From Escherichia coli (GTDB lineage Bacteria; Pseudomonadota; Gammaproteobacteria; Enterobacterales; Enterobacteriaceae), in the NCBI RefSeq assembly GCF_003991155.1, contig NZ_CP031293.1: DNA of 64,000 nucleotides; one strand, 5' to 3'. Position 1 is the stretch's first letter, and each line of letters starts with the position of its first letter. The translations under genes and the position numbers were made by a program. Positions 1 to 12,426 of this stretch are shown piece after piece. The notes under the pieces are model-generated. The model had not been told where the DNA came from. It saw only the letters and a program-made list of their open reading frames with translations, and did no database searches.

Positions 1-414
1 TCGTCTTTTGGGATCAATGTCGTGATAAACGAGCGTACGATTTTTGAGCTTGACGCAGTGGCTGAGCTGGCGCAACAGTTTGGTGCTAGTGAATTGCTGT
101 TGTTGCCTCAGCAAGCAACTAATGCAGTCGCAAGTATGGACGAATTGGTCGGCCGAGAGCTTCAAAACTGGGTCTCTAGCTATAGAGGAAAGGTTCGACT
201 TGCAGTAAGTGAGGTGGGAGCGTCAGGGCTCCCCATATGTGACCCTCTTCCTAATGAAACAGGCCTTCAAGCCTACGCGCATATAGACGCTTCCGGGATA
301 TTGCGCACGAGTTCTTATTCAACCACAGGTATGGATATTGAAGAAACTGGTGTTATGTCCGCGCTTAAACGGCTTAGAAATACCTTAGAGATTAAACAAG
401 GGACACAATCATGA
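1..414 (+). CDS. hypothetical protein, 5'-partial (reading frame open to window edge)
   Basis: Frame is open from nt 1 (no upstream in-frame stop); stop overlaps the next start as ATGA at 411-414. Confidence 0.35.
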   Translation, partial: SSFGINVVINERTIFELDAVAELAQQFGASELLLLPQQATNAVASMDELVGRELQNWVSSYRGKVRLAVSEVGASGLPICDPLPNETGLQAYAHIDASGILRTSSYSTTGMDIEETGVMSALKRLRNTLEIKQGTQS

Positions 415-818
415 AAATTTGGAACGGATACGGATCTGAGCATTCGATGAACTTAGTTCTCATCGGAAAATTCAAGCAAGAGCAAGATGCAGTGAAGGTC
501 GAGAAGGATATTAAAACGCTCAGTACTCAGGCTGAGAAAGATGAATGTTACTCGATCCCTTTTGATGAGCCAGAGAATCAACGGTTTTCATATGAAATGC
601 TCTCATTACTATGCAGCCTAAAACTCCACACTTTAGGACCAACCGATCTTGGTCAATTGGTGTCAGATCATCATCTAGATCGCGAAGGCGATAGAATAAC
701 AATAACTACTGATGAGGCAGAGGTATCCGCGTTCGTGAAGCTGTTTGTCGAGGCTGGAGCAAAGGTCGAGATTTTCTCAGCGCATGACTATCCGTCCGAT
801 TCCAGCGATGCCAGTTGA
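411..818 (+). CDS. hypothetical small protein (135 aa), translationally coupled between flanking genes
   Basis: ATG overlaps upstream stop (ATGA); its own stop at 816-818 overlaps the TTG 815 of the large downstream ORF. No family recognised. Confidence 0.4.
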   Translation: MKIWNGYGSEHSMNLVLIGKFKQEQDAVKVEKDIKTLSTQAEKDECYSIPFDEPENQRFSYEMLSLLCSLKLHTLGPTDLGQLVSDHHLDREGDRITITTDEAEVSAFVKLFVEAGAKVEIFSAHDYPSDSSDAS

Positions 819-832
819 CAGAGGATGCATTG

Positions 833-3800
833 ATGCCTGAAGTAAATTGGAAAGTATTCAACGAACTGCCCGGTGCAGCAGATGTGAACTTCGAAAACCT
901 TTGCCGCGCTCTGGTACGCCGACACTATGGTCGTTTCGGTCGCTTTAAGCAACTCGCAAATCAGCCTGGGGTGGAGTTTCACCTCGAGCTGACGGAGCCT
1001 TGTGATCTCGGTGCGCCACCAGGTTGGATTGGTTGGCAATGCAAGTGGTATGAACTGGTGAATGGACAAGATTTGGGAGCCTCCCGCCGCAACAAGATCA
1101 TCGAAGGTATCGAAAAGACGCGTAAGCATGTCCCTGGAGTGACCAATTGGAAGCTTTGGACTCATCACACGTTAACAAAAGGTGATCAAGAGTGGTTTTT
1201 CGCGCTAGAGCAAGACCGCTTCCCAGAATTGAAGTTAGAACTGCTCACAGCTACGGATATCGAAGATCTTTTGGTCGGACCGGGAGCGCTTTTACGAGAA
1301 ACCTACTTTGGTGAACTGGTTCTAACTCCAGAGCTAATTGCTGAGCAGTATAAGCTTGCAGTGGCCCCATTTAAGAACCGCTACCAGCCAGATGTTCATG
1401 TAGCGGTGGGGGCTGAGGAGAATATATTCAGGCATCTGTGCAGCCAAAACGCATGGGAATCTCTGGAAGAACTCTCAAACGCTTTAAAAAAGAATCATAC
1501 GAGCATTGCTTCGGTTACTGAGCAACTCAAAACTGAGCTCAGGGCTGAAGTTGAATTACTCCTGGCCCGGGTTATTGGGTTGACTGAGTTTATTGATGGC
1601 TTACACGCGGCGCTCGGCAAAGGTGACTTTAACTCTGTATATCAAGCGTTGGTTTCAAATCCGCGTCAGCCGGTACGTTATGACAGGCTACTTTCGAAAT
1701 TGCGTGGAGCGCGCTTTGACGGGGCTCCGTTAACCGCTAATTTGGTTGCAGATATCCACGCGGTTTCGTCAGTTCTCCGCAGTCTGGAGCAATCGATTAG
1801 TGCTCGGGCGGTTGCTGTTCTTGCGGCGGCGGGGGAAGGTAAGTCTGAACTTGCAGTCAAGGTAACACAGCCAGAAGGGGCGTTCCTAGGGGGAATCCTC
1901 CTATTAGGCAAGAATCTTCATTCAGGCCAGGGGCTTGATGATCTCGTATCTGCCTTCAAGATTTCTGGGAGACCAGCAGAAAGTTTTGACCGCCTGATTG
2001 AGGCCGTAGATGCGGCAGGCCAGCGTGCAGGTAAACGCATACCTATTGTTATTGACGGTCTGAATGAGGCGGAAGATCCGAGAAATTGGAAGGATGAATT
2101 ATCCCGAGTGGATGAGCTTCTAAAGAATTTTCCTTATGTCTTGTTAGTTGTCACTCTTCGCAATGAATTCGCCCAGATGTGTCTGCCTGAGGGGTTTCCC
2201 CAAGTTGAACATAATGGGTTTCAGGAAGATCCGAAGACAGCATTTGACAAGTATTTTGAGTACTACAAGATCGATGCTACTGATGCGGATCTACCAGTCG
2301 AACTCTTGCAGCACCCCTTAACACTGAGAATTTTTTGCGAAGTAGCAAATTCTCCTCGTCAGCATATTGTCGGAGTGGAAGCATTGCCCCGTTCGCTTGC
2401 AAGCCTGTTCGAAGCTCACTTTAACAAGGTTGCAGCACGAGTCGCTGAGCTTTCACCGACGATGCATCGCATTTATCAAGATGACGTTCAGGATGCACTA
2501 CTAACGATCGCGGGTCTTCTTTGGGATAACAATGCGAGAAGTGTGGATTTTCAGGCTACACGGATGGCAGTTCGGGATATGGGGTGGGACGACAGTATTA
2601 TTCGTGCACTGGAGTCTGAAGGCATTCTCGTTCGGACTATTTCTCCAGAAGGTAGGCAAGGAGTTGCGTTTGCATACGACCTAATGGCCGGACATATGAT
2701 GGCGCGCAACCTGCTTATGAAGCCTGAACTGGTGCAATGGCTACAAAGCGATGAAGGGAACGCAAAATTTAAATCTCATGGACCTGATTCGCATACCTTC
2801 GCTTATGACGTATTACGGGCTCTGGTTGATCTGTATCCGCAACACTCTGGTAGGCGGCAGCTTTGGCAAGACTTGTCGGATGATATACTCGTTATGAACG
2901 CTCTGCTATTGACGACGCAATCGGATCCAAGATATATCGGGCGGGCTACTGTTGAACGATTTGCTCAAGCTATGCAGGAGTCGAAGCGGTTTGCACAACT
3001 TGCCTTCGAGAGACTACGGAGCACTAGGGCTGCGCTGGCACATCCGTTTGATATGAGCTTTTTGCATGATGTGCTAATGGCTATGTCCAACACTCAGCGC
3101 GATCTTTTTTGGTCAGAGTGGATTCGTCAGAAATCTGAACAAGTTAAAGACGACTTAAAATTCTTGTCGACGAGATGGAAATCGGGTCATCTGGATGAGC
3201 GTGAACTTCGAAGAGTTCGCTGGGTAATGTGGACACTGACGACGACATCCAGAGCTTTGCGGGATATGGCTACCAAAGCCCTGTATGAATTTGCCATCAG
3301 GCGGCCAGAAGAGTTTTTCCGGTTAGCGACGGAGACAATTGTAGTTTCAGACCCATATGTCCCCGAGCGAGTGTTCGCCGCAGCCTACGGTGCAGTCCTG
3401 ACCACTTGGTCGGATATCGATGCGGTAGAGTTACATGATGCGTTGCCACGGTTCGCTCGTGAGATTTACCAAACCATGTTTGCACCTGGCGCTACAGCCC
3501 CTACCTGGCATGCATTACATCAGCAGTACTGTTTGGGAATCATTGCCATTGCGAGGATGGTCGATCCAAATTGTTTTTCAGAGGACGAAGCTGTTTATCT
3601 TCTTCCGCCATTTAGCCATCTGCCTAACGTATTTGAAAGCATTCAACCGTACGATCCAGAGATGATTGGGCGAGCGGAGAGCGCAGCGATTCAAATGGAC
3701 TTTGGTAACTATACGATTGGTGGACTTATTCCAGACAGAGCGAACTACGATGACAGTAATCCGGAGTACCAACAGGTGTTGCAGGCCATTGTTTCTCGAA

Positions 3801-4891
3801 TGCTGATGCTTGGTTATGACCCTGAGCAGTTTGAAGCTGTTGATCGGCAAATGTACTCCGGTTCTCGTATGGGAGATGACAAGCACAAAATCGATCGATA
3901 TGGCAAAAAGTACGGCTGGATAGCTTACTTCGAGATGTGGGGGATACGATACGCGCAGGGCCTCCTTTCCGAAGAACGCAGTGCTCGCCCATCAGATGCT
4001 GATATCGATCCAACGTTTCCGCAAAAAGTAGAGAGTATTAGTTTGTCACTCCCAGTCTTATTTAACGATCCGTCTGTGGATGATGGTGACTGGATCGTGG
4101 GAGGCCCGCTACCTGACTACCGTAGCATCCTTGAGATTACGGAGGTTGATGGTCTGACGGGGCCATGGATCCTACTTGACGGTTTTGTTGAGCAAAATGC
4201 TACCTCGGATGACCGACAGATTTTCACTTTCCTGCGAGGAGTATTCGTAGATAGCCAAGAAGTTGACAATCTATGTAGGTTGTTCATTGATCTTGAATAT
4301 CCTGGCAATAGCGCCATCCCTGATGCTCCTGGCTACTATTACACCTATGCGGGTGAGATGCCTTTCCCGACTATTCCGGGGCTGCTAGTCGCTAATGAAC
4401 AAGAGGATGATAGCGATGAAAATTTGGTGTTCGCAGAAAGATGGTCAGGCAATGGCGTTGCGGTAGATATCACAGTGCAGGACTACAACTGGGAGAGCTA
4501 CCATAGCGTGGAGAACCAAAGCAGCGGTGCGAGCCTGCCCTCAAAGCAACTTTGTGAGGCTTTGAATCTCAGATACTGTGCAAACAAATGGGATTTGCAT
4601 GATGCTGCAGGTGTAGCGTCACTTTACCGCAAAATTGACGAAAATGGTTCGGACGTCAGTGGCTCTGTCAGCTATCTACGTCGTGATCTACTTGACCGCT
4701 ATTTGATGCAATCCGGTAAGGTATTGGTATGGCTTATGTGGGGAGAGCGTGGTTTTCATTACCGGTCCAACAAGACACGCAATTTGCACAGGTATTACGT
4801 GAATCACCAACATATTCACAAGCGTATTCATATCCATCAGATAGCTTCGAGTACTAGTAACCCAAATATTGCGGATGGAGTCGCTATATGA
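833..4891 (+). CDS. STAND-class P-loop NTPase, Avs/NLR-like, with N-terminal Mrr-like (PD-(D/E)xK, QxK variant) nuclease-type domain
   Basis: Walker A-like AAAGEGKSELA and Walker B-like IPIVIDGLNEAED (the hhhhDGLNE form typical of NACHT/STAND NTPases); N-terminal NFENLCRALV...GWQCKWY resembles the Mrr catalytic core; long C-terminal region. ORF track starts at TTG 815; first ATG is 833. Confidence 0.55.
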   Translation: MPEVNWKVFNELPGAADVNFENLCRALVRRHYGRFGRFKQLANQPGVEFHLELTEPCDLGAPPGWIGWQCKWYELVNGQDLGASRRNKIIEGIEKTRKHVPGVTNWKLWTHHTLTKGDQEWFFALEQDRFPELKLELLTATDIEDLLVGPGALLRETYFGELVLTPELIAEQYKLAVAPFKNRYQPDVHVAVGAEENIFRHLCSQNAWESLEELSNALKKNHTSIASVTEQLKTELRAEVELLLARVIGLTEFIDGLHAALGKGDFNSVYQALVSNPRQPVRYDRLLSKLRGARFDGAPLTANLVADIHAVSSVLRSLEQSISARAVAVLAAAGEGKSELAVKVTQPEGAFLGGILLLGKNLHSGQGLDDLVSAFKISGRPAESFDRLIEAVDAAGQRAGKRIPIVIDGLNEAEDPRNWKDELSRVDELLKNFPYVLLVVTLRNEFAQMCLPEGFPQVEHNGFQEDPKTAFDKYFEYYKIDATDADLPVELLQHPLTLRIFCEVANSPRQHIVGVEALPRSLASLFEAHFNKVAARVAELSPTMHRIYQDDVQDALLTIAGLLWDNNARSVDFQATRMAVRDMGWDDSIIRALESEGILVRTISPEGRQGVAFAYDLMAGHMMARNLLMKPELVQWLQSDEGNAKFKSHGPDSHTFAYDVLRALVDLYPQHSGRRQLWQDLSDDILVMNALLLTTQSDPRYIGRATVERFAQAMQESKRFAQLAFERLRSTRAALAHPFDMSFLHDVLMAMSNTQRDLFWSEWIRQKSEQVKDDLKFLSTRWKSGHLDERELRRVRWVMWTLTTTSRALRDMATKALYEFAIRRPEEFFRLATETIVVSDPYVPERVFAAAYGAVLTTWSDIDAVELHDALPRFAREIYQTMFAPGATAPTWHALHQQYCLGIIAIARMVDPNCFSEDEAVYLLPPFSHLPNVFESIQPYDPEMIGRAESAAIQMDFGNYTIGGLIPDRANYDDSNPEYQQVLQAIVSRMLMLGYDPEQFEAVDRQMYSGSRMGDDKHKIDRYGKKYGWIAYFEMWGIRYAQGLLSEERSARPSDADIDPTFPQKVESISLSLPVLFNDPSVDDGDWIVGGPLPDYRSILEITEVDGLTGPWILLDGFVEQNATSDDRQIFTFLRGVFVDSQEVDNLCRLFIDLEYPGNSAIPDAPGYYYTYAGEMPFPTIPGLLVANEQEDDSDENLVFAERWSGNGVAVDITVQDYNWESYHSVENQSSGASLPSKQLCEALNLRYCANKWDLHDAAGVASLYRKIDENGSDVSGSVSYLRRDLLDRYLMQSGKVLVWLMWGERGFHYRSNKTRNLHRYYVNHQHIHKRIHIHQIASSTSNPNIADGVAI

Positions 4892-5049
4892 GTTACGACT
4901 TCAGAAATCTTTCATCCGCAAACTTTGAGGATCTTGTGCGGGATCTTATCGAAAAAGAAGAAGGGTTCGCTTCGAAGCATTCTCTGTGGGGGCTGATAAT
5001 GATATTGATGGCCGACACGCACATGCTGGAGGGAATGTCAGTTTATAGG
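4888..5049 (+). pseudogene. 53-codon remnant beginning a Mrr-like nuclease domain, ATGA-coupled to the STAND gene stop
   Basis: ATG 4888 overlaps the STAND stop (4889-4891); MSYDFRNLSSANFEDLVRDLIEKEEGF parallels the N-terminal motif of the upstream STAND protein, then terminates early; followed by about 1.2 kb AT-rich ORF-free DNA. Confidence 0.3.
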
Positions 5050-6264
5050 TAAAACCTTATGAAGGGGCGTCGTTTAGTATACTGATGGCTATTATGAAGT
5101 GTGAGTGGTTGTCTAAAGATAAGCTAGCCCTCACACGCTGTATCAAGCGACCTCTTGTTAGCTTACTCCAGCTAGCAAGAGTAAACTTTCCCCACTCATA
5201 GGGCTATGTTTGAAGTCCGAGTCGGAAATTGGGGGGCAGAAGACATAAAAGGTCTCCTTAAGAAGTCTTCTTGTCTGTACAAAAACTCTTATTTTGACAA
5301 AGAGCATTGTAGTTATTAACAGGCTGATTAATAAATTTAAAAATAAGTCGTCAGGAACACCAGATTAGCTACCCAAATTCTCATGCCGTGGAAGCGGAAG
5401 AAAAATACTCCCCTGAATATCTTCATATCGGATATACATAATAAGCTTGAGGTTGTATATTTGAAGAATTGAGTAGCCAGAGCCTTGTTGACATAAAGCG
5501 ACACGAACAACATGTTACTTAAAATATCACGAGTATATATTCAGACTTGTTTATGTTGCGACATGGATTCTACAGGCAGCTGGCTGAAACAGTGAGTCAG
5601 AAAAATTTACAGGAGCGCCATAGTCATTAATGGATATCCGTAATATGCTGATGCAAAAGGGTAAGGAGTTTGCCGGTAATCTGCGGTGTTAGACGACAAT
5701 TACAAAACGACCTTAGGCGTCAATTACCGCTGAAAAAAGTGACAGATCACTTTCTATAAAATGCTGCCGTATGACCGACAGATTTATTCCGCTTTATAGC
5801 CATGACTGTTCGGTGCTCACTTCGCTGCGCTCCGCCTCAGTCCTGCCTAAAAAGCGTTGCAGGTTAGTTTGTATCGGCCTAATGAAAGGCTGTTTTAGCG
5901 AAGCGTAAATGTGACATCTTATCTGGTCTAATCTCTTTGCGATAATTGACGCAAAAGCATGGGCTGTAATTGTCACGCAATACTGCGGCAAGTCTCATGA
6001 TGATGCCTCTGACAGGGATCTCCGTAGCCATTAACTGGTCGATTGGTAAGCTAAAACAAAAAAATTGAATTTGTCAAGACAGCCATAATGACTACCATTT
6101 TCGTCTCTGCTTTTCCATCCTGAAATTAATGGCTATCATATTCGCAATAGACAACATCATCTTACTTGCACTCAACTATAACTAATGCTGAGTGCAAGAA
6201 ACGGGGATTATATCCCCTATCAAGGACCTGTTGAAATATTAGTCTGGAATTTCGAGGCTGTAAT

Positions 6265-6789
6265 TTAAATTGCTCCATTTGCCTTAGCATCAAGAATGAA
6301 TTTTTCATACTCGCGTTCTGCAACAACAACAGGGACTGTTTTGCGATTATATAATTGCATTAATAACAATGTACGATGCCTTCCATCAGAAACACCAAAT
6401 TCACTGTTAGATGCCTCTGGATATTCAACATACCCTTTTGATATATATTTTTTGATTTTATGCCATCTACGCGGATCAATGCAGAATGCTCCATCTCCTA
6501 ATTTTTTAAGAAAGGCTAGCCCATCGACATATACAATCCTGGTAGGACAATGCCGATAGCGTACAGGAAGGGTAAAGATAATATTTTCAAAAACAGGGAA
6601 AGTAAGACCTGAATCATCTTTAGGTATTGACTCAAAGGAATCAAAAGGATATTTTGTCATGTAATCATTTAGTTTTTCAATATCCATATTGGAAAACCAC
6701 GATACTTCCGGGAGAAATTTTTTATCTCTTTCTCTAATTTCTTTGATCGAATCTCCAAATATATCATCTAACCTCCACCCCTCTTTCAT
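6265..6789 (-). CDS. hypothetical protein with C-terminal ParB/Srx-like DGRHR motif
   Basis: 174 aa; GVSDGRHRTLLLMQL near the C-terminus resembles the DGxHR signature of ParB/sulfiredoxin-fold nuclease domains; AT-rich gene downstream of an Rhs immunity gene. Confidence 0.45.
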   Translation of the reverse strand: MKEGWRLDDIFGDSIKEIRERDKKFLPEVSWFSNMDIEKLNDYMTKYPFDSFESIPKDDSGLTFPVFENIIFTLPVRYRHCPTRIVYVDGLAFLKKLGDGAFCIDPRRWHKIKKYISKGYVEYPEASNSEFGVSDGRHRTLLLMQLYNRKTVPVVVAEREYEKFILDAKANGAI

Positions 6790-6833
6790 TTATGCTCCTA
6801 AAATAATGTGATATTAAAAATTCTGTTAATAAG

Positions 6834-7349
6834 TCAAATTTTATGAATACTAATAAGGGGTTTGCACCACTCAACCGAGAGAATATCTTCCATTTTATAA
6901 AAAACGCCATAATCACTTTGATTATAATGCTCAATTTTATCAGCCATTTGTAATCTAATTTTGTCTTTGTAAATTCTACTTCGGATCAAACTGGCGAAAT
7001 TATATATATCAACCCTCAGATTGATAATATTATTTCTATCTGGGCGTCTTTCATGTAACATATCACGAAAAGAAACAAGTAACGTAATTAATTTTTTAGC
7101 CTCATTATTTTTAATATATCCTTTTTTAAAGATGCATAATATTAATTTTGAAATTAAGCTGATTTTTATTTGTAAATTATAGATAGCATTATCGTTTGTC
7201 AGGCAGGTTATGACTTCAATTACTTCACGTGAGCGAATATAATTGTCCAGTGCTTCCCATTCATCCATTCCTCGATGCATTGAAAGTTCCAATTGCCTTA
7301 AAAAAGCATATAACCCCAATAAGAAGTCGCTATTGCAGTATATTTTCAT
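6834..7349 (-). CDS. putative Rhs immunity protein (cognate to orphan Rhs-CT at 7346-8737)
   Basis: 171 aa, AT-rich, immediately downstream of the Rhs-CT gene with a 4-bp ATGA overlap; family not recognised. Confidence 0.5.
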   Translation of the reverse strand: MKIYCNSDFLLGLYAFLRQLELSMHRGMDEWEALDNYIRSREVIEVITCLTNDNAIYNLQIKISLISKLILCIFKKGYIKNNEAKKLITLLVSFRDMLHERRPDRNNIINLRVDIYNFASLIRSRIYKDKIRLQMADKIEHYNQSDYGVFYKMEDILSVEWCKPLISIHKI

Positions 7350-8737
7350 GAATCACATCCTTTAATAAAACTCATTATTCGTGACCAAAAAGAGTCTTTT
7401 TTGTATATAGGGTTTTTATCGTTTAATGGTAAAGGATCGTCTGTTGGTATAACGGCTGTATTTCTTGGCCCAACATTTGTTTTAGTAAGTGAATCTTTGG
7501 AAGCATCAAACTCTACATAAGAACCATTCTTCCATGCCCCTGTTTCTGCACCTGCCGTTTTAGGATCTCCAAATGGCTCCACCTCAACGTGTACACCAAC
7601 AGGATTGCCTCTGGCAGGGTTGATAGACCCATCCTTGCTAATTCCATCAATACCCTCTGTTGAAGTATGATGTCTAACTCTAACAGTATCGTCACCAGTT
7701 AACCCTAACGGATCAATAATTTTTAGCGGATTAAATACATATCCATACAGGCAATCCCCACCTCTCAGCCCCATCGGATCAGCACACAGATACTGCCCCG
7801 TATCGCAATCATAATACCTGAATCGGTTATAGTACAGGCCTGACTCAACATCCTCGTACTGCCCCGGAAAACGTAACCGGCATGTGGGCGCATCTTCTTT
7901 ACTGATGCCTTCCTCACGCCCCCAGAGCTGCTGCTTGCCTTTCCAGACTATCAGACCCTCTTCGGTCAGCAGTTCTTGTACGCGGCCAGTTGTGTCTGTT
8001 ACCGCATAATGCAGTTGCCCCTTTTCATAACGCGCAAACGGCGTGAAATCTCCCGGCTCGTATATCCAGCGGATGGCGTTTTCATCTTCCGGTTTGCCGT
8101 CAGCGCCAACCGGAATTTCCGCCGTCAACTGGTCGCCGTTCCAGTGAAAATCCATGCCGCGTTTGTCGCGGCTGGTACAGCGCTTGCTGATGCGCCTGCC
8201 GAACGGGTCATACTTATATTCCCAGCGTTCGCCCTCCGGTGTTTCCAGTCCGGTCAACTGGCTGCGTGCATCCCATTTATAACGCCATTCCAGTGGGCGA
8301 TAACCCCCTTTATCCACCAGTTTCTGTACCAGCCTGCCGTTAACATCATATTTCCAGGTGATGTTGTGCGCATTCACCACCCGGACAAATCTCCCGTCTT
8401 CCCCTTTTCCGGTGTCCGGGTTGATGCGATGCGTCGAGTGCCGCCAGCCTTCATGTTCCCGCGATACCACACGACCATGCTGCTGTTGCTGGTGCGTCTC
8501 GCTTTCCAGTACGTTATTCACCCTGATCTGGCGACGGGTAATGTTCAGGTTTTTATCGTAAGTGAACAGCTCCTCGCACAGCGGAAACTGGCTGGAATCA
8601 CCCGTCCAGGTGGCGTGGCTTATCTGGTCGTTTGCCGTGATGGTGTTGAACATGGAGCCGCGCAGCGAGTCGGCGATTGCGGTGAGGTTATACGCTTTGT
8701 CGTAGCTTCGCTGCGTCGGGAGGTTTCCATGCCGCAC
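7346..8737 (-). CDS. orphan Rhs C-terminal fragment: end of YD-repeat core plus variable C-terminal toxin domain
   Basis: YD-repeat-like segments (YKYDPFGRR, WIYEPGDFTP) and the core-terminating motif YYNRFRYYDCDTGQYLCADPMGL...DPLGL, followed by a ~115-aa unrelated C-terminal domain; GC-rich core against AT-rich tip. No full-length Rhs N-terminus upstream. Confidence 0.75.
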   Translation of the reverse strand: MRHGNLPTQRSYDKAYNLTAIADSLRGSMFNTITANDQISHATWTGDSSQFPLCEELFTYDKNLNITRRQIRVNNVLESETHQQQQHGRVVSREHEGWRHSTHRINPDTGKGEDGRFVRVVNAHNITWKYDVNGRLVQKLVDKGGYRPLEWRYKWDARSQLTGLETPEGERWEYKYDPFGRRISKRCTSRDKRGMDFHWNGDQLTAEIPVGADGKPEDENAIRWIYEPGDFTPFARYEKGQLHYAVTDTTGRVQELLTEEGLIVWKGKQQLWGREEGISKEDAPTCRLRFPGQYEDVESGLYYNRFRYYDCDTGQYLCADPMGLRGGDCLYGYVFNPLKIIDPLGLTGDDTVRVRHHTSTEGIDGISKDGSINPARGNPVGVHVEVEPFGDPKTAGAETGAWKNGSYVEFDASKDSLTKTNVGPRNTAVIPTDDPLPLNDKNPIYKKDSFWSRIMSFIKGCDS

Positions 8738-8850: not shown

Positions 8851-9285
8851 TTAAATGGGGAATTTTTCTTCAATGAGCTTCAAGCCAAGTAATGCCATAT
8901 CATGAATATCTTCATCATGCGATTGAGCCGAAATTTTCAACCCGTTTACCATTCTTTTATCTGGGAAAGACATTGTTAATATAGTACACCAAAGCCTAAC
9001 GCTTTTTATTGTGTTAGGATTTTCGAGTATGTTAACGATATTTATAACAACATCATTAAAATCACACTTATAGAGAAAATCCTCAACAATTTGATATACT
9101 CCAAGACCATCACCCTCACCAAAAGATCGCAAAAATAAAGGTATTGCATCTTTATCGGGATGGGAAAGAAAGTAAATTCGTACCTCATCGTATTTATCTA
9201 TAAGATCCTGAGTAATATCACAATCCGCGGGCATTGGTTGATGTAGTGACAGGAACTCTAATGCTTCTTTTTTATTCATATTCAT
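8851..9285 (-). CDS. putative Rhs immunity protein (cognate to the IS-truncated Rhs-CT at 9282-9763)
   Basis: Small ORF starting immediately after the upstream toxin stop; likely start at the internal Met (MNMNKKEALEF). Confidence 0.45.
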   Translation of the reverse strand: MNMNKKEALEFLSLHQPMPADCDITQDLIDKYDEVRIYFLSHPDKDAIPLFLRSFGEGDGLGVYQIVEDFLYKCDFNDVVINIVNILENPNTIKSVRLWCTILTMSFPDKRMVNGLKISAQSHDEDIHDMALLGLKLIEEKFPI

Positions 9286-9763
9286 ATATTTAATGATTCC
9301 CAAAGTTTTTTATTCTGTCTGGCTAACTCATATAGTTGTTCAGTGATGACCTTTTTATCATAGCCTGCATTTGTTAAGATTTTTCTTAGGTCATCTATAT
9401 CCCTTTTCAAATATTGTTCTTTTGTCAAACCTCGAACAAATGCTCGTCTGAATGTCCAGGTAAGAGCATGTAAATCTTTACGCAGATTTATCGTAATTCC
9501 CTTACATTTTGTTGTGGGGCTTACCGCATCCTGAATGGCATGATGAGGTGTATGAGTTGCATTAAGCCCTGTTTTACCATTCGCATAAATTGAAGAACCA
9601 TATGTACCAACGTATAAATCTTCTCCTGGACCAGCTAACAATCCCAAGGGATCAATCCATACCAGTGGATTTGGAGCGTAATTGTAAAGGTTTACTCCCC
9701 CCGACAGTCCAATCGGATCAGCACACAGATACTGTCCTGTCTCGCAATCATAGTACCGGAACC
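9282..9763 (-). pseudogene. Rhs core tip plus C-terminal toxin domain, 5'-truncated by the IS3-family element
   Basis: Rhs-derived coding begins at RFRYYDCETGQYLCADPIGL...DPLGL exactly at the IS left terminus (9764); the annotated Met and first ~16 codons are read from IS terminal sequence. C-terminal domain of unknown family. Confidence 0.65.
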
Positions 9764-11013
<1,250 letters not shown>

Positions 11014-11016
11014 CCA

Positions 11017-11385
11017 CTACAATGAGAGCATAAGTACACCTGCCGTCATTTCTGGTACGGCAACGCCCCCCGGTGTATAAGCTGTCCCGTTAATGATGAT
11101 GTCACAGGCGGGTTTCAGGGGGGCGAGGTCGCTTTCGCGCAGTACCGGAGATGTGTTCATCTCCCCGGCATACTCATCTTCCACACACAGCGGTAGCGGC
11201 GGGTTTTCGATAAGTTGGGTTTGCCACTGACCATTTTCGTCCCGTTGCAGCCGGAAGCCCGTTTTCATGGCGATAACGCGGTGACGTTCGCTATGTTTAT
11301 CATCCATCGCATATTCTATCGCTGAAAACGGCGTCAGGTTACGAAATTCCATATTGCACCCCGATCCCGTCTGTACCTGTCGCAA
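11017..11385 (-). pseudogene. N-terminal fragment of a gene truncated at the IS right end
   Basis: ORF runs into the IS right terminus and hits a stop inside the inverted repeat. N-terminus MEFRNLTPF... is tentatively reminiscent of T6SS-associated DUF2169-type proteins, from memory only. Confidence 0.35.
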
Positions 11386-11790
11386 AACATAATTCTACAG
11401 ATGGCACAGTATCCCCCTGATACAGGTAAAAACTTATTTCACGGAAACCGGCATAGCAAACTGGATGACACAATACCGGGCAAAACGATAAGTATGGTTA
11501 CTATATGAAACGGAATACTCCCGTTTCGTATTATTTTTTTTGACTGATATCAACGGGACGAATTAACTGACAGGATATTTACTGGAAAGTGTCTGCATAT
11601 TGCTCAATATATTTTTAATGGAAATGTATTCTCCATTAATATTTATGGTGTGATTGTGTTTCCCTGTGTGTCAGCTTCCGCTAAACCCCTTGCTGCAAAT
11701 TACCGATCATTGTATTGTTGCGCCGCGCCTGCAAAATCAGGCGTCGGGATTGGAACCCTGATAAGTGTTACAGGCGACATATAGCGCATT

Positions 11791-12426
11791 TTGCGTCTTT
11801 TTTATGTCGTGCGTCTGGCTGCATCTCAATGGTGGGCTGGACGGGGGCGTCGCAAGACGCGCCGGTTTCCTGTAACACCGGTAGTTCCAACCCCGTTCAG
11901 TTCACCACCAATGAGATTGGAACCTCTGGTGGTGGAATTACCACCCGTTACAGGAGGCTATCCTATGGTTATCATCCTTTCCCCTGACTGCGACTTACTT
12001 TCCATCCCCTTCAGTGCCACCACGGATTTCACCGATCTGGCCGACTACTGCGATCGCTTCGCTGAAACCCTGATCGAATGCCACGATCCGGCGCTGAAAA
12101 TGGCGCTTTATGGCAGGATCAACGCCAGCCTTGCGCTGCTGCGTCCCTCGTTGGGCGAGCCGATCCCGCTGCACCTGATCGACCGTTTCATTGTGGACAC
12201 GCTTCCCGACGTTTCACCGCGCTTTGAACCCGGCGCAGGGCTGCTCTGTGACTACTGTCTGGCGCTGACGCAGGTATTAAGCGGGCGGTCGCTGCTGCCG
12301 GAAACCGAAACCACACTGACCGGGTTGCTGTGCGAACTGGTCTGGTATTTTGCCGCCGACCTTAAAGCGCCGCAGTGGCTGCGCACCGCTGATGGCTTAC
12401 AGGTTATTGACGGGGGGACGGTATGA
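11791..12426 (+). CDS. hypothetical protein, translationally coupled to the downstream Ner-like gene
   Basis: GC-rich ORF whose stop overlaps the Ner-like start (ATGA at 12423-12426); true start uncertain. Confidence 0.35.
   Translation: MRLFYVVRLAASQWWAGRGRRKTRRFPVTPVVPTPFSSPPMRLEPLVVELPPVTGGYPMVIILSPDCDLLSIPFSATTDFTDLADYCDRFAETLIECHDPALKMALYGRINASLALLRPSLGEPIPLHLIDRFIVDTLPDVSPRFEPGAGLLCDYCLALTQVLSGRSLLPETETTLTGLLCELVWYFAADLKAPQWLRTADGLQVIDGGTV

Follow-up and report, generated by a model that had tools for sequence, protein, structure and literature searches.

The DNA analyzed here is a window of 64,000 nucleotides from Escherichia coli (NCBI RefSeq assembly GCF_003991155.1, contig NZ_CP031293.1), which comes from a chromosomal genomic island located between yeeN and a tRNA-Asn gene. 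Downstream of an orphan Rhs fragment and a putative immunity gene, this island carries a short gene that encodes a protein of 174 amino acids (aa) with a DGRHR motif, predicted to adopt the fold shared by ParB and sulfiredoxin (Srx). The best reading of this gene is that it represents independent cargo at the end of the Rhs array and encodes neither an Rhs toxin nor the immunity protein of one. The gene and its elements are the following.

6265-6789, minus strand: coding sequence of the 174-aa protein with the predicted ParB/Srx fold, stop codon included, found at the identical locus in the open reading frame (ORF) list and in the RefSeq annotation.
6361-6396, minus strand: GVSDGRHRTLLL, residues 132-143 of the 174-aa protein.
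6373-6387, minus strand: DGRHR motif, residues 135-139, a predicted nucleotide-phosphate-binding site at a strand-to-helix junction.
6463-6480, minus strand: IDPRRW box, residues 104-109, the second conserved basic element of the ParB/Srx core.

The RefSeq entry for this ORF is WP_223718426.1, annotated as "hypothetical protein", and its ATG start is preceded, 5 nt upstream, by an AGGAG Shine-Dalgarno sequence. The GC content of the gene is 35.0%, compared to 48.7% for the window, and the gene starts 44 bp past the stop of the 171-aa ORF encoding the putative immunity protein; the initial annotation, which had described an AT-rich gene with the motif downstream of an Rhs immunity gene, was exact on these points, including the boundaries of the ORF. 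Comparison with the orthologues from Salmonella and an integrative conjugative element (ICE) yielded dN/dS ratios of 0.13-0.25, and the ORF is therefore a constrained coding gene, i.e., a real gene under purifying selection.

The AlphaFold model of the 174-aa protein (predicted local distance difference test score 88.4, predicted template modeling score 0.81) represents a single domain with the alpha/beta core of the ParB/Srx fold, without a helix-turn-helix (HTH) or a dimerization domain. The best matches to the predicted fold were ParB/Srx proteins, with Osa as the top structural hit, and the structure prediction thus bore out the guess of a ParB/Srx fold that had initially been made from the motif. 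In the model, D135-G-R-H-R139 lies between a strand (residues 133-135) and a helix (residues 137-147), which places DGRHR where the ParB/Srx superfamily has its phosphate-binding GxxR/DGxHR element. Residues G136, R137, H138 and R139 are invariant in the 36 family members of the wide alignment A2, down to about 20% identity, and only 0.09% of shuffles of the 174-aa protein contained DG.HR; the presence of this motif is therefore not due to chance. The IDPRRW box precedes DGRHR in the protein, and its six residues (I104, D105, P106, R107, R108 and W109) are invariant in the alignment A1, with R108 also nearly invariant in A2.

The sequence comparisons yielded modest scores. A PDB search with the wide profile A2 identified SbnI, a serine kinase, as the best match, at a non-significant E of 0.19, in a collinear alignment of the form P-R...K..I...P...DGxHR...IPV. 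In this alignment, DGRHR corresponds to DGVHR and IDPRRW to EPSRLE of SbnI. ParB-like PHROG families recurred at the same region in 6 of the 11 family members tested (E 0.017-0.3), and both of these weak signals agree with the fold assignment. For the 174-aa query, no match was found in Pfam at E<=10, and neither ParBc (PF02195) nor a related Pfam model matched significantly. The individual members of A1 and A2 showed no significant Pfam match either, the best related one being GmrSD_N at E 0.028 in 1 of 36 members. NCBIfam gave no match for the query or for 10 family members, PADLOC (PADLOC-DB v2) gave no family at E<=1 for the 174-aa protein, and a PDB sequence search with this protein alone gave no match. 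The PDB search with profile A1 returned a ribosomal protein only, which was discarded as a non-significant chance match. In UniProt, homologues with 40-56% identity are named "ParB/Sulfiredoxin domain-containing protein", so assignment to this superfamily was already implicit in automatic names. Overall, the ParB/Srx identity is supported at the level of the superfamily, and the protein belongs to none of its named families.

Searching 1.84 billion representative proteins with a family profile yielded 50 relatives at E<=1e-3, none of which was longer than 205 aa; the ParB/Srx domain of this family is therefore always stand-alone. One structural match deserves mention here, as the AlphaFold Database entry A0A4Q4X714, an uncharacterized protein of 697 aa, matches the model at a Foldseek E of 1.7e-6 and may represent the sole multidomain relative of the family. 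A search of 90% clusters yielded 54 homologous clusters from Escherichia, Salmonella, Serratia, Pantoea, Klebsiella, Cedecea, Enterobacter, Providencia, Proteus, Vibrio and Photobacterium, all labeled "hypothetical" in every source that names them, and 60-75% identity is kept across genera within the family; the 90% cluster occurs on ~330 contigs. By tblastn, the gene family was found on 202 of 72,556 plasmids, 149 of which are predicted to be conjugative; more than 100 of the 202 are E. coli plasmids whose copy is about 43% identical, and the two of these that were examined are IncF plasmids. The same search found no copy of the gene family in 50,697 phage records. Scanning species-representative genomes with A1 added only 2 further loci, as expected for an accessory plasmid gene. 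The family is thus typical of conjugative plasmids and ICEs of Enterobacterales and Vibrionaceae. It is annotated solely as "hypothetical protein" in the RefSeq and PLSDB records examined, and no literature on it was found, including by accession number.

On plasmids, the gene is usually located in the maintenance region, near partition, recombinase and toxin-antitoxin genes. In IncF colicin B/M plasmids, where one homologue is WP_001027529.1, it lies between colicin B and parM/stbB, in a region that adjoins leading-region methylase, DUF1380 and antirestriction (ArdA) genes, and in plasmids of Pantoea, Enterobacter and E. coli it follows parA and a small parB, with genes for a 236-aa tyrosine recombinase and RelB/ParE directly downstream. 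On a Providencia plasmid, the gene is preceded by ProQ/FinO and DUF2913 genes and followed by what we take to be a possible Gabija pair, as read from the annotations "ATP-binding protein" and "UvrD-helicase" and not checked with PADLOC. The contexts on ICE-like elements and conjugative contigs include one where the gene adjoins ArdC, DUF3085 and integrase genes, one where it lies near an orphan Dam-type methylase with TraI and AcaB, and one with GAPS4 and McrBC cargo nearby. A further one of these contexts has the gene near TraG, PcfJ, C5-methylase and SprT-like genes, and in another the gene is found beside TrbM. Clustering of the neighbors at 18 non-redundant loci of the family revealed no obligatory partner, and no downstream gene, immunity or other, was conserved across these contexts. 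The commonest neighbor, a tyrosine recombinase, was found at 5 of the 18 loci (directly downstream at 4), and resolvase, Rpn nuclease, DUF2913 and Rhs genes were each found at 4 of the 18.

Rhs arrays adjoin family members in E. coli and Salmonella only. The surroundings of the gene in the E. coli island comprise the following features.

6834-7349, minus strand: AT-rich 171-aa putative immunity gene with a 4-bp overlap with the Rhs ORF; context only, outside the ParB/Srx module.
7346-8737, minus strand: orphan Rhs fragment of 463 aa with NCBIfam matches RHS_core, Rhs_assc_core and YD repeat and Pfam matches RHS and RHS_repeat; context only.
6800-6829, minus strand: sigma-70-like promoter match, TTAACA-18-TATTTT (9 of 12 matches), in the 44-bp gap upstream of the 174-aa gene; weak evidence.
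6203-6217, minus strand: terminator-like hairpin GGGGATATAATCCCC followed by GTTTCTT, 48 nt past the stop of the 174-aa gene.

The C-terminal toxin domain of the orphan Rhs fragment (about 115 aa; window 7346-7700, minus strand) matched no Pfam or NCBIfam family. The family of the 171-aa protein comprises just 5 clusters and is confined to E. coli-type sequences. Of 5,426 complete E. coli genomes, 23 contain the 174-aa gene, in each case within this island and together with the 171-aa gene. Draft E. coli genomes (L028-L031, 1-7085) carry the island in an intact form, in which DUF2169 is followed by a full-length Rhs of 1464 aa whose toxin differs, a 181-aa gene, the 171-aa gene (91% identical and without its toxin) and the 174-aa gene (99% identical). 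The block of the 171-aa and 174-aa genes thus forms the distal end of the E. coli array. A metagenomic Rhs array (L032) carries a 171-aa homologue of 52% identity and remnants of the same toxin-coding region and no ParB/Srx gene; a 174-aa ORF beside this homologue was considered as evidence for a recurring pair and rejected, as its protein is unrelated. Outside the E. coli island, the ParB/Srx gene occurs everywhere without a 171-aa homologue. The two genes are thus separable, since each occurs without the other.

In Salmonella, the closest relatives of the protein (74% identity, P0002) are again encoded at the end of an Rhs array and outside the immunity slot. At one locus (L016), the upstream ORF of 157 aa is an Rhs core fragment that ends in ...YYNGFELL, a string found in the full-length Rhs of a second locus (L019) about 200 residues before the toxin domain; the idea that this ORF represents a toxin with the ParB/Srx gene in its immunity slot was therefore rejected, as the ORF is cut before any toxin domain. 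At L019 itself, the DNA upstream of the ParB/Srx gene is an IS1 remnant. Downstream of the gene, both loci (regions 3116-8120 of L016 and 8629-13369 of L019) carry a complete chromosomal type IV-A3 CRISPR-Cas system with Csf1, Cas6, DinG, Csf3 and Csf2. This type of system is characteristically plasmid-borne and directed against plasmids. A Thoeris pair, ThsB and ThsA(Macro), is inserted between the ParB/Srx gene and the CRISPR-Cas system in L019, and only the last ~20 codons of thsA remain in L016. At the nucleotide level, the similarity of the E. coli locus to the Salmonella loci extends from the start codon of the gene to its stop codon and no further, which is the behavior of a discrete cassette. 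The terminator-like hairpin in the window is consistent with the gene as the end of a transcription unit, and together with the promoter-like site it fits a self-contained unit, though neither kind of site is more numerous in the region than expected by chance, as estimated for the promoter-like sites from shuffles.

Further along the array, a second orphan Rhs C-terminal fragment (a 176-aa ORF) and a 150-aa putative immunity gene are located at window positions 8851-9812 on the minus strand. This fragment is cut by an IS3 element, which contains a match to the small RNA (sRNA) isrC at 9832-9954, and a truncated DUF2169 gene (11017-11385) follows past the IS3 (both within 9800-11385), indicating that an original vgrG/DUF2169/Rhs cluster has been broken up. 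On the other side of the 174-aa gene, about 1.4 kb without an annotated gene separate it from a convergent gene encoding a 1358-aa STAND protein, which matches PADLOC Avs2 at E 8e-116; in some of the L028-L031 strains, this Avs2-like gene is cut short by IS3. It is the last of three plus-strand genes with overlapping stops and starts (window 22-4891), which begin with a radical SAM gene (22-414, partial at the window edge) and a DUF6375 gene (411-818). The radical SAM and DUF6375 proteins had no PADLOC match, and the set may represent a variant of Avs2 that includes accessory genes. Of a restriction-endonuclease-like gene whose start overlaps the Avs2 stop, only a remnant is left (4888-5230, plus strand), in which a 54-aa ORF survives; this remnant shows 71% nucleotide identity to a gene annotated as "restriction endonuclease" on a Pseudomonas fluorescens plasmid. 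In the 1.4-kb gap, two stretches of about 75 and 98 nt (5785-5860 and 6006-6103) are about 80-84% identical to unannotated intergenic DNA of many Salmonella and Klebsiella conjugative plasmids; they could represent a small repeat or sRNA, and Rfam identified no RNA in the gap, including in these two stretches. At 11712-11912 (plus strand), next to ash-family and HTH genes, Rfam gave matches for isrK and for C4 antisense RNA with its a1/b1 targets, and these features resemble what would be left of a P4-like satellite within this tRNA-Asn island.

Taking these contexts together with the model, the gene may be viewed as a self-contained single-gene cassette for a stand-alone ParB/Srx-fold protein of a small unnamed family. 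In this E. coli lineage, the cassette would be cargo at the junction of a decaying Rhs orphan array and a defense island with the Avs2-like gene, presumably without functional coupling to the adjacent Rhs toxin/immunity pair. The N-terminus of the DGRHR helix and the IDPRRW box may form the nucleotide-phosphate pocket of the ParB/Srx fold; with such a pocket, the protein would be expected to bind a nucleoside triphosphate (NTP) and probably to hydrolyze it or transfer its phosphate. This expectation comes from the chemistry of the superfamily, which includes ATP-dependent phosphotransfer (sulfiredoxin, SerK, SbnI), NTPase and ATP-regulated DNase activity (Osa) and CTP switching (ParB, KorB) (PMC3482391, PMC5512222, PMC12065111, PMC8744291). 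We consider the chances about even that the 174-aa protein is an independent NTP-binding ParB/Srx enzyme of mobile elements. In the initial annotation, the motif was likened to that of ParB/Srx-fold nucleases. Since proteins of this fold with a canonical DGxHR motif comprise kinases, NTPases and DNases alike, the term "nuclease" was an assumption; a nuclease or a kinase activity of the protein would both be conceivable.

As a best functional guess, the protein could act in conflicts between mobile elements in the manner of Osa, an ATP-regulated DNase/ATPase that interferes with the coupling protein and blocks the transfer of rival plasmids and of T-DNA (PMC8744291, PMC5696584). Osa/FiwA, a fertility-inhibition factor of the IncW plasmids pSa/R388 (PDB 4ovb, 4o7k; PF22162), is a stand-alone ParB/Srx protein of 189 aa encoded near ArdC in R388. 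The 174-aa protein is likewise stand-alone and borne by conjugative elements, has a similar length (174 aa versus about 190 aa for the Osa/FiwA family) and shares with Osa the local strings IVYV(N/D)GLAF and DG..R...LL. DGRHR aligns, without statistical significance, with DGMTR of Osa, which differs from the DGRHR that is invariant in the 174-aa family. No match to PF22162 or an NCBIfam model was found, and hhalign comparisons with Osa alone and with the Osa family alignment were not significant (E 0.13-0.15), the latter, of the family profile A2 against the Osa family A4, reaching E 0.15 and a probability below 1%. Therefore, the protein may work like Osa and should not be called an Osa, and a specific role in blocking conjugation, suggested by this analogy, is put forward tentatively, as somewhat doubtful.

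The other characterized relatives also differ from the 174-aa family, which represents an uncharacterized branch of a well-known superfamily, with an unsurprising architecture. SbnI and SerK carry an extra C-terminal domain and are encoded in biosynthetic operons, and sulfiredoxin has a catalytic Cys in its motif (GCHR); compared to all three, the 174-aa family has its own N-terminal extension of about 50 residues and occurs in a mobile-element context. Set against the canonical CTPase clamps ParB, KorB and Noc and against HerB (YfjB), the 174-aa protein has DGRHR in place of GERRxR and lacks an HTH and a dimerization domain, and it is therefore not a partition ParB. Unlike canonical ParB, it is also not paired with ParA, as the plasmids carry separate par loci and no ParA gene is adjacent in the window.

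Among the alternative explanations, the one that survives best, though we consider it rather unlikely, is that the gene encodes a factor for the establishment or maintenance of plasmids and ICEs, such as an anti-restriction or host-manipulating enzyme or an accessory of multimer resolution or partition, and that the chromosomal copy is a relic of integrated plasmid or ICE DNA with no role for the host. The location of the gene beside parM/stbB or parA, tyrosine recombinase, RelBE and DUF2913 genes, its border with leading-region DNA methylase, DUF1380 and ArdA genes and its proximity on ICEs to ArdC, orphan methylases and SprT-like genes are consistent with this explanation. In addition, HerB/YfjB, a plasmid ParB-like protein, acts at establishment (PMC13370423), and the ParB domains of polyvalent proteins are predicted to be early effectors (PMC5512222). 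However, the gene is found outside the leading region proper, with the par locus in between, its product has no HTH for DNA targeting, and it has been kept intact under purifying selection in chromosomal islands without any transfer genes.

It was also suggested initially that the gene might encode an immunity protein, and such an orphan of an Rhs or type VI secretion system (T6SS) polymorphic-toxin system could have persisted at the distal end of the array, its oldest part, while plasmids spread it as acquired interbacterial defense. The gene indeed ends the Rhs array in Salmonella and in two variants of the array in E. coli (the window and L028-L031), it is AT-rich like immunity genes, and its protein is small and cytoplasmic. 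However, in the 18 contexts it never directly follows a gene with a toxin domain; in the window that slot is filled by the 171-aa gene, and the Salmonella genes are preceded by the toxin-less core fragment or by the IS1 remnant. Moreover, conservation across genera, low dN/dS and an invariant enzyme-like motif are unlike typical immunity proteins, no Pfam immunity family (SUKH, SuFu, Imm1-74 and similar) matched, and most copies are solitary genes in plasmid maintenance regions or on ICEs and not in immunity arrays. The missing toxin domain, the conservative evolution and the mainly solitary occurrence argue against an immunity protein, which we consider improbable.

An equally improbable explanation is that the gene represents a single-gene anti-phage defense factor of the adjacent defense island. 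Several defense systems lie near it, namely Avs2-like in the window, type IV-A3 CRISPR-Cas with Thoeris in Salmonella, GAPS4 and McrBC on an ICE and the possible Gabija pair on the Providencia plasmid, and ParB/Srx domains serve as sensors or NTPases in the GmrSD, Dnd/Ssp and Menshen systems (PMC12065111). In these systems, however, the ParB domain always works with an effector domain or a partner gene, and the 174-aa protein is solitary; moreover, many plasmid copies are located in maintenance regions and not in defense islands, and neither phage-encoded homologues (50,697 records) nor other phage links were found. From the initial suggestion of an independent defense factor, the independence has held up as the best fit, while a function against phages has no PADLOC match to point to.

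More speculatively, and with even less probability, the protein could be an enzymatic orphan immunity factor, i.e., a repair enzyme similar to sulfiredoxin that would use ATP to undo a covalent modification introduced by an Rhs or T6SS effector. If true, this would explain why Rhs arrays of E. coli and Salmonella alike end with the gene, and its spread on plasmids would represent acquired interbacterial defense. A milder variant of this idea would be a host-domesticated, Osa-like anti-conjugation gene that acts as a one-gene anti-plasmid defense in a defense island.

Very improbable is a stand-alone ParB-type nuclease toxin, either an orphan Rhs C-terminal domain with its own start or a toxin-antitoxin-like toxin paired with the 171-aa protein: while the gene sits within an Rhs array, and secreted multidomain toxins of the RHS and FHA types can end in a Tox-ParB or Tox-ParBL1 domain of the same superfamily, with an immunity gene such as Imm20, Imm27, SuFu, SUKH or Imm44 downstream of each (PMC3482391), all homologues of the 174-aa protein are stand-alone and mostly plasmid-borne, with a maximum of 205 aa, their own conserved N-terminus and no PxxxxDPxGL junction. 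The additional orphan toxin proposed initially is further argued against by the absence of any fusion to a trafficking domain and of a conserved downstream partner in the 18 contexts (in the window, the hairpin and non-coding DNA follow); none of the plasmid and Salmonella contexts examined contained a 171-aa homologue, and the gene is present alone on 202 plasmids, which would be unlikely for an unneutralized toxin.

It is natural to assume an immunity function for any small AT-rich gene that ends an Rhs array, and reading the 174-aa gene as independent cargo corrects this assumption. The gene belongs to a compact, conserved family found on about 200 sequenced plasmids, including IncF colicin B/M plasmids and pM324-NDM1. 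If its members are Osa-like inhibitors or establishment enzymes, this family would represent a new player in plasmid-plasmid competition and in the spread of resistance plasmids.
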